From a virus (taxonomy: Duplodnaviria > Heunggongvirae > Uroviricota > Caudoviricetes): 14,720 nucleotides of DNA. Below are positions 5,404 to 5,554 of this stretch, one piece after another; the stretch's first letter is position 1, and every line of letters begins with the position of its first letter. The notes under the pieces are model-generated. The model was not told the origin of the DNA. It saw only the letters and a list, made by a program, of their open reading frames with translations, and ran no database searches. The DNA lies in the IMG/VR virus record IMGVR_UViG_2877285697_000005; one strand, given 5' to 3'. The translations under genes and the position numbers were made by a program.

Positions 5404-5554
5404 ACTGTTCACCACTGTTCACCCTGTCATAAATATCTTTTGTATCAGTATGTTATAGGGTGAACAGTGGTGAATAGTTGGTGAATAGTTTTTGTGAAAC
5501 TGTTCACCCCTTAACATTATGAATTAAAAGATAAAATATCAAAAGGTGAACAGG
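5404..5554. repeat. Iteron cluster, putative replication origin
   Basis: ACTGTTCACC at 5404-5413, 5414-5423 and 5499-5508. Inverted copies GGTGAACAG(T/G) at 5459-5468 and 5545-5554, and GGTGAATAGTT at 5469-5479 and 5480-5490. AT-rich spacers at 5424-5457 and 5511-5544. Confidence 0.65.

Follow-up and report, generated by a model that had tools for sequence, protein, structure and literature searches.

What is the function of a short sequence that is repeated in both orientations just downstream of a replication gene in the viral record IMGVR_UViG_2877285697_000005? The whole stretch of 14,720 bp, referred to here as the window, belongs to an Escherichia coli element, and the region holding the repeats is matched in 594 of 5426 complete E. 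coli genomes; islands in O26, O103, O157 and other strains have 98.5% identity to the entire window. The comparisons presented here indicate that positions 5392–5604 very probably serve an E. coli capsid-forming phage-inducible chromosomal island (cf-PICI) as its vegetative replication origin, which the initiator encoded immediately upstream would recognize. The type I iterons of satellite P4 and the location of phage-inducible chromosomal island (PICI) origins 3′ of pri-rep are already known, and the unusual point is that this origin has lost a 74 bp module.

The initial annotation of the region described at least seven copies of GGTGAA(C/T)AG in both orientations at 5404–5554, and this is borne out by an exact search of both strands. 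Seven exact matches to GGTGAAYAG lie within 5405–5553, three of them in the CTGTTCACC orientation (starting at 5405, 5415 and 5500) and four in the GGTGAAYAG orientation (starting at 5459, 5469, 5480 and 5545), together with a degenerate eighth copy (GGTGAAGGG) at 5553–5561, where most relatives carry a good GGTGAACAC copy. The interval is essentially right, with the iteron array better placed at 5404–5561 and the unit as a whole at 5392–5604. The other 14.5 kb of the window contains a single additional exact match, at 4112, within the initiator gene. The 8 bp core of the repeat, TGTTCACC, is present in the array in five exact copies and two copies with one mismatch (TATTCACC). Given the base composition of the window, 0.0024 copies are expected per 150 bp, corresponding to a Poisson probability of about 1e-22 for seven or more, and in 30 shuffles the best 8-mer in any 160 bp window reached no more than three copies, as opposed to five in the real sequence. 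Chance clustering of the repeats was rejected on these grounds.

The array begins 14 bp past the initiator stop codon (5391), and the start-to-start spacings of its iterons are 10, 43, 10, 11, 21, 44 and 8 bp. The intergenic region in which it lies (5392–5604) is 33% GC, compared with 48–52% in the flanks, and the AT-rich tracts that the repeats had been said to flank are readily seen, with iterons in opposite orientations on either side of both spacers (26% and 17% GC). The components of the region are as follows.

5392–5604, no strand assigned: entire intergenic region, interpreted as the replication origin (213 bp, 33% GC)
5405–5413, minus strand: iteron 1 (CTGTTCACC), by exact search
5415–5423, minus strand: iteron 2 (CTGTTCACC), by exact search, 10 bp from iteron 1
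5424–5458, no strand assigned: AT-rich spacer 1 (35 bp, 26% GC), holding an IHF-like match at 5443–5455
5457–5468, plus strand: putative junction of the 74 bp deletion, AGGGTGAACAGT, a 12-mer present twice, 74 bp apart, in relatives
5459–5467, plus strand: iteron 3 (GGTGAACAG), by exact search
5469–5477, plus strand: iteron 4 (GGTGAATAG), by exact search
5480–5488, plus strand: iteron 5 (GGTGAATAG), by exact search
5500–5508, minus strand: iteron 6 (CTGTTCACC), followed by a conserved CCTTAAC, by exact search and alignment of relatives
5509–5544, no strand assigned: AT-rich spacer 2 (36 bp, 17% GC), counterpart of the P4 ori1 AT-rich region and the likeliest candidate for the DNA-unwinding element
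5545–5553, plus strand: iteron 7 (GGTGAACAG), by exact search
5553–5561, plus strand: degenerate iteron 8 (GGTGAAGGG), a good GGTGAACAC copy in most relatives

Other signals are scarce. There is no DnaA box (TTWTNCACA, allowing one mismatch) in 5392–5604, and the number in the window as a whole is at the chance level, which fits DnaA-independent initiation in the style of P4. Neither a sigma-70-like promoter nor an intrinsic terminator was found in 5200–5800, so that upstream transcription probably continues across the origin, and no Rfam family matches the window at gathering thresholds. The IHF-like match noted above (TATCAGTATGTTA, pattern WATCARNNNNTTR) is one of six in the window, where 1.0 is expected; it is kept out of the model because it is not conserved by eye in the relative vB_KppS-Ant or in EcCICFT073. 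Within the initiator gene itself there is an inverted pair of iteron-like 8-mers (GGTGAACT ... TGTTCACC) at 4081–4120, which is degenerate in the closest complete genome (L001) and is probably a chance occurrence at background frequency.

The gene upstream of the array codes for a protein related to the alpha protein of P4, and three segments of it are relevant here.

3559–5391, plus strand: P4 alpha-like initiator gene (610 aa with the GTG at 3559 as start codon, 605 aa with the ATG at 3574)
3574–3969, plus strand: N-terminal domain (about aa 6–137), TOPRIM-like in fold, without the P4 EGYATA glutamate and without a DxD motif
5062–5352, plus strand: C-terminal origin-binding winged-helix domain (aa 502–598), from phmmer comparison with PDB 1KA8

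P4 alpha combines a DnaG-type primase, a superfamily 3 (SF3) helicase and a winged-helix domain (PMC2777425). The window initiator consists of an N-terminal TOPRIM-like domain, D5_N and SF3 helicase domains, and a C-terminal winged-helix origin-binding domain, with Pfam matches to D5_N, DUF5906 and Pox_D5. Its residues 150–600 are 50.7% identical to the helicase and DNA-binding portion of P4 alpha, and residues 502–598 match the P4 alpha DNA-binding domain of PDB 1KA8 with E=9.9e-25 (49% identity to the P4 domain). The two proteins differ at their N-termini, in that the zinc-finger/TOPRIM primase of P4 alpha, with its EGYATA motif, is missing from the aligned window protein. Neither Pfam nor NCBIfam gives a match to the first ~137 residues, and in our reading of the alignments the position of the EGYATA glutamate is occupied by AGSDAW, with no DxD following strand 3. 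The resemblance of this domain to TOPRIM is one of fold, without the catalytic motifs, which makes a primase function doubtful and priming by the host more likely. The earlier placement of the array directly downstream of a primase-helicase gene is right as to adjacency (14 bp) and the SF3 helicase; the primase part is doubtful. N-terminal domains of this type are also fused to RepA/AAA_25-type helicases in other elements.

The repeats themselves also link the array to P4. The core TGTTCACC agrees at every base with the repeat that the P4 record (NC_001609.1) names 'ori type 1 repeat', of which it has six copies in ori and ten in crr, and the P4 crr also carries the one-mismatch variant TATTCACC seen in the window. 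The likeness extends to the arrangement. Denoting the CTGTTCACC orientation by >, window positions 5459–5561 read < < < > < (<), with spacings of 10, 11, 21, 44 and 8 bp and a degenerate sixth copy, and P4 ori1 reads < < < > < <, with spacings of 10, 11, 22, 43 and 10 bp; in both, a CCTTTAAC-type motif and an AT-rich tract of ~35 bp follow the lone inverted copy. The left part of the array, 5405–5467 (> 10 > 43 <), resembles the P4 crr repeat (> 9 > 43 <), and the winged-helix origin-binding domain and SF3 helicase are homologous in the two systems. In P4, alpha reportedly binds the type I iterons, and a minimal ori1 is reported in detail (Ziegelin/Lanka; Magnoni 2006). There are also differences. 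P4 is bipartite, with crr (4291–4590) directly 3′ of alpha and ori1 (9310–9413) 2.3 kb upstream of the alpha start, ~4.7 kb from crr, whereas the window has a single compact cluster where P4 has crr. Between its alpha gene and crr, P4 carries an intrinsic terminator, for which no counterpart was found here, and it has a gene for the Cnr regulator upstream of alpha, of which the window has no homologue by sequence. A full-text literature search on TGTTCACC and type I iterons returned nothing relevant.

A second precedent is EcCICFT073, a classical PICI. The origins of Gram-negative PICIs directly follow the 3′ end of pri-rep, with two iteron sets flanking an AT-rich region, and a rep-ori segment of EcCICFT073 maintains a temperature-sensitive plasmid, with deletion of either part impairing maintenance (PMC6092414, Fillol-Salom et al. 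2018); PICI and P4 origins were treated as independent in that study. The EcCICFT073 initiator (Pri-Rep) has 47.8% identity to the window initiator over its full length; DUF4222, initiator, ori, a small open reading frame (ORF), ssb and perC occur in the same order in both elements, and the EcCICFT073 origin is likewise immediately 3′ of pri-rep with iteron sets around AT-rich spacers. Its 288 bp intergenic region contains the iteron CTGTCTACC, arranged as in the long allele of the window origin (a three-module map of 287–288 bp, described below). The differences are that the iteron core is TGTCTACC in EcCICFT073 and TGTTCACC in the window, that the DNA-binding domains are only 32% identical, and that EcCICFT073 has all three modules, whereas the window, a cf-PICI, is without one of 74 bp.

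More distant systems share the general plan. The origins of the SaPIs, the islands of Staphylococcus aureus (Ubeda et al. 2007, cited in PMC6092414), are also 3′ of rep, with two iteron sets flanking an AT-rich region and an element-specific pairing of iteron and initiator, but their iteron sequences are unrelated and the host is of a different phylum. Iteron plasmids such as pSC101, R6K and RK2 have direct repeats for a self-encoded initiator beside an AT-rich unwinding element; the window differs from them in having no DnaA boxes in or beside the array, in an initiator that is a helicase and not a RepA-type loader, and in iterons that are short (8–9 bp) and present in both orientations.

If the array is read by the adjacent gene product, then iteron and DNA-binding domain should change together, and this was assessed in 80 Enterobacterales loci encoding initiator homologues, with one genome taken per species. 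At about 62 of the 80 loci a TGTTCACC-type cluster lies within 10–350 bp of the initiator stop codon on its 3′ side, starting at 10–90 bp, with no second cluster within 6 kb. Most of the others have a different iteron in the same place and layout, and a few show weak repeats only. At least five alternative cores occupy this common architecture: GTCTCCACC in Yersinia, Rahnella, Edaphovirga and Erwinia; (G/C)TGTCTAC, the TGTCTACC type, in Kluyvera, Enterobacter, Lelliottia and Scandinavium; CTGTCCGCC in Serratia; CTATCTACC in a Raoultella metagenome-assembled genome; and GAAAAGTGCAAT in Serratia phage Scapp. The iteron type tracks the β-hairpin wing of the winged-helix domain (KRKTKHGLRSN, IRKKSTKGNMRSN, KRKQCTRGPDKGRTISN and KKAESKKKATRGRIQSN), which is where the mutual information with iteron group peaks, and the window domain is closer to that of P4 (49% identity, same iteron) than to that of EcCICFT073 (32%, different iteron). 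Among 11 diverged origins of the TGTTCACC group, 78% of columns within iterons are invariant compared with 28% elsewhere (P=2e-13), and the spacers drift in sequence while retaining their length. This combination of covariation and iteron conservation is the pattern expected of sites read by the protein of the adjacent gene. The proposal that this is the layout of a satellite origin bound by its own initiator is therefore upheld as far as predictions at the level of sequence can go, by the P4 iteron, the 1KA8 homologue, the layout shared with P4 and EcCICFT073, and the covariation.

These features suggest how the origin might operate. Following induction by a helper phage and excision of the island, the C-terminal winged-helix domain of the initiator would bind the TGTTCACC iterons, with the protein assembled as hexamers or dimers on the phased repeats. 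Iterons 10–11 bp apart would share one face of the helix, and opposed sets would be positioned around the AT-rich spacers of ~35 bp, such that cooperative binding by the opposed arrays could distort and melt a spacer, most likely 5509–5544. The SF3 helicase domain would then load itself on the melted DNA and the island SSB would coat and stabilize the single strands; priming would probably be by host DnaG, with host primase and Pol III completing initiation.

The window origin departs from those of its relatives in one respect. The canonical origin is composed of three modules spanning ~288 bp, each with forward iterons, a spacer of ~35 bp and reverse iterons, and is maintained across genera and iteron specificities. 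Its map, > 10 > 43 < 21 > 11 > 8 > 44 < 10 < (11 <) 21 > 44 < 8 <, is shared by EcCICFT073, vB_KppS-Ant, L001 (long allele at 8093–8379) and over 20 further loci. The window map is > 10 > 43 < 10 < 11 < 21 > 44 < (8 <), in 213 bp, and is one module short. The missing 74 bp correspond to the stretch between two copies of AGGGTGAACAGT in relatives (window 5457–5468; L001 8158–8243), and the module appears to have been lost by recombination between these two repeats. With its 74 bp (~7.0 helical turns) the deletion matches a single module period, and it leaves intact the ori1 equivalent and one crr-like unit. The remnant can be viewed as a left module resembling P4 crr, joined to a complete six-iteron module resembling P4 ori1.

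The deletion allele is rare. In a sample of 59 complete E. coli genomes, spread over those that match across the full length, all 59 have the long form and none has the deletion; a 33-mer across the short-allele junction has no match in viral or metagenome contig collections, where the long junction has 10 viral matches, and no single-piece match is present among the E. coli complete genomes listed. Outside the window the short allele was found in one Logan assembly only, ERR5984642, through an exact-protein look-up; its contig ERR5984642_244 agrees with the window at 100% identity across 4818 bases, the 213 bp origin among them. The identical initiator protein is encoded on 10 contigs, and the one that was inspected, an independent assembly, has the short allele. 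Because the deletion is rare and removes a conserved module, activity of the origin is not guaranteed.

The explanation that survives best after the one we favor is that the origin has been inactivated or crippled, the deletion having destroyed a required module in an island copy that is decaying. The retention of the three-module, ~288 bp architecture across genera and specificities fits this, as do the absence of the short allele from the 59 genomes and the unmatched junction in viral and metagenome collections. P4 ori1 is sensitive to loss of iterons and to insertions of 6 or 10 bp, and larger deletions in other strains fuse the initiator N-terminus to other genes: in the E. coli proteins P0122, P0124, P0200 and P0208 it is joined in frame to SSB, in protein P0171 to PerC, and in protein P0213 to a capsid-type domain (PF03864). 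Such fusions imply that helicase, DNA-binding domain and origin were all deleted, and hence recurrent decay of the replication module. On the other hand, a deletion of exactly one period preserves phasing and leaves six iterons and an AT-rich spacer intact, and in P4 one of the two crr repeats is sufficient. The remaining island genes are full-length ORFs with lengths equal to those in L001, and the sharing of the short allele with an independent assembly, with the identical initiator on 10 contigs, also speaks against a dying copy. Since a whole period was removed and both the ori1 equivalent and a crr-like unit are intact, we consider the origin probably still functional, and a crippled origin a real but distinctly less probable outcome.

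It is less likely still that the cluster is a crr-like, cis-acting replication enhancer with the true initiation site elsewhere. The P4 cluster found immediately 3′ of alpha is indeed crr, and the left module of the window resembles the crr repeat. However, no second, ori1-like cluster is present elsewhere in the island: a scan that picks up both P4 clusters finds just one in the window, one in L001 and one in the complete 16.5 kb packaged vB_KppS-Ant. The full ori1 layout, AT-rich region included, is reproduced on the right of the array, and among long alpha homologues (at least 780 aa, mostly from Xenorhabdus and Photorhabdus) 42 of 46 have the downstream cluster only, with the three-module map. 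The split arrangement of ori1 and crr in P4 thus appears from these comparisons to be the atypical one.

A role of the repeats mainly as a transcriptional operator, bound by the initiator or another regulator and controlling the orf81-ssb-perC-capsid operon, seems improbable. Initiators often autoregulate through their own iterons, as is known from plasmids. The array does lie between co-directional genes, and the one-direction transcription of Gram-negative PICIs (PMC6092414) must cross it. Against this, 5200–5800 has neither a sigma-70-like promoter nor a terminator, the AT-rich spacers, the helical phasing and the resemblance to P4 ori1 in layout all characterize an origin, and the homologous region of EcCICFT073 behaves as one; the repeats might have a secondary regulatory role, though nothing found here speaks for it. 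Finally, terminase small-subunit binding sites can also be repeated, yet a packaging (cos/pac) site or a chance cluster is scarcely credible given a chance probability of ~1e-22, a motif that matches and co-varies with the specificity of the adjacent DNA-binding domain, and arrays of this type in relatives without terminase genes (EcCICFT073 and P4).

Several points nevertheless weigh against the identification of 5392–5604 as a working origin. First, the array is in the position of the P4 crr, a cis-required enhancer, and not in that of ori1. Second, the eighth iteron is degenerate. Third, a module kept in every other relative examined is missing, and the allele may be weakened or dead.

The genes surrounding the origin place it in its element. 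From the 5′ end, Pfam and RefSeq annotation gives an integrase, AlpA, accessory genes, DUF4222, the P4-alpha-like initiator (3559–5391) and the iteron region, followed by an 81-aa ORF, SSB, PerC, an HK97-type capsid, prohead protease, portal, head completion, connector, HNH, TerS and TerL. The window has the PICI organization (int, alpA and unidirectional genes) together with its own capsid, portal, HNH and terminase genes, and this type of gene organization is that of the cf-PICIs (10.1101/2022.09.08.507074), to which we assign the window on its gene content. The genes nearest the initiator and origin are these.

3278–3577, plus strand: DUF4222 gene (Pfam), overlapping the initiator start by 19 bp, as also in EcCICFT073
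5605–5850, plus strand: orf81 (phrog_1231, function unknown), downstream gene of the replication module
5847–6257, plus strand: ssb, downstream gene of the replication module

The order of orf81 and ssb after the origin (5605–6257) is the order in EcCICFT073. The DUF4222 gene occupies the position of cnr, although BLASTP finds no similarity between its product and P4 Cnr (ORF106); homology to Cnr was rejected for this reason, and the protein may have an analogous function. Further upstream, a 379-aa ORF at 1819–2958 is without a Pfam match, though phage 'transcriptional repressor' PHROGs match the ~60 residues at its C-terminal end. In L001 this region has a pseudogene and Icd-like genes instead, so that 1819–2958 is a variable accessory module.

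It is tempting, though doubtful enough to be offered only as a conjecture, to suppose that the bipartite ori1 and crr of P4 are a split derivative of the single three-module origin that follows the initiator gene in almost every element of the alpha family, of which the window deletion would be a minimal fusion of a crr half and ori1, that cf-PICI and P4 initiators, given their identical iteron, might cross-fire at or titrate each other's origins in the numerous E. coli strains with satellites of both families, and that the pairings of iteron and wing might define compatibility groups.

None of these results overturns current understanding, and their interest is modest. They narrow a cf-PICI origin to a 213 bp fragment and identify the protein domain expected to read it, which is of use in the engineering and annotation of these satellites, the latter because the cf-PICI description (10.1101/2022.09.08.507074) does not describe the ori or its iterons. 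They place the E. coli PICI origin and the P4 ori1 and crr in one family with a common iteron and spacing. The five or more iteron specificities that co-vary with the wing of the winged-helix domain constitute a natural specificity series, and the naturally occurring one-module deletion offers a ready test of how much of the three-module origin these satellites need.
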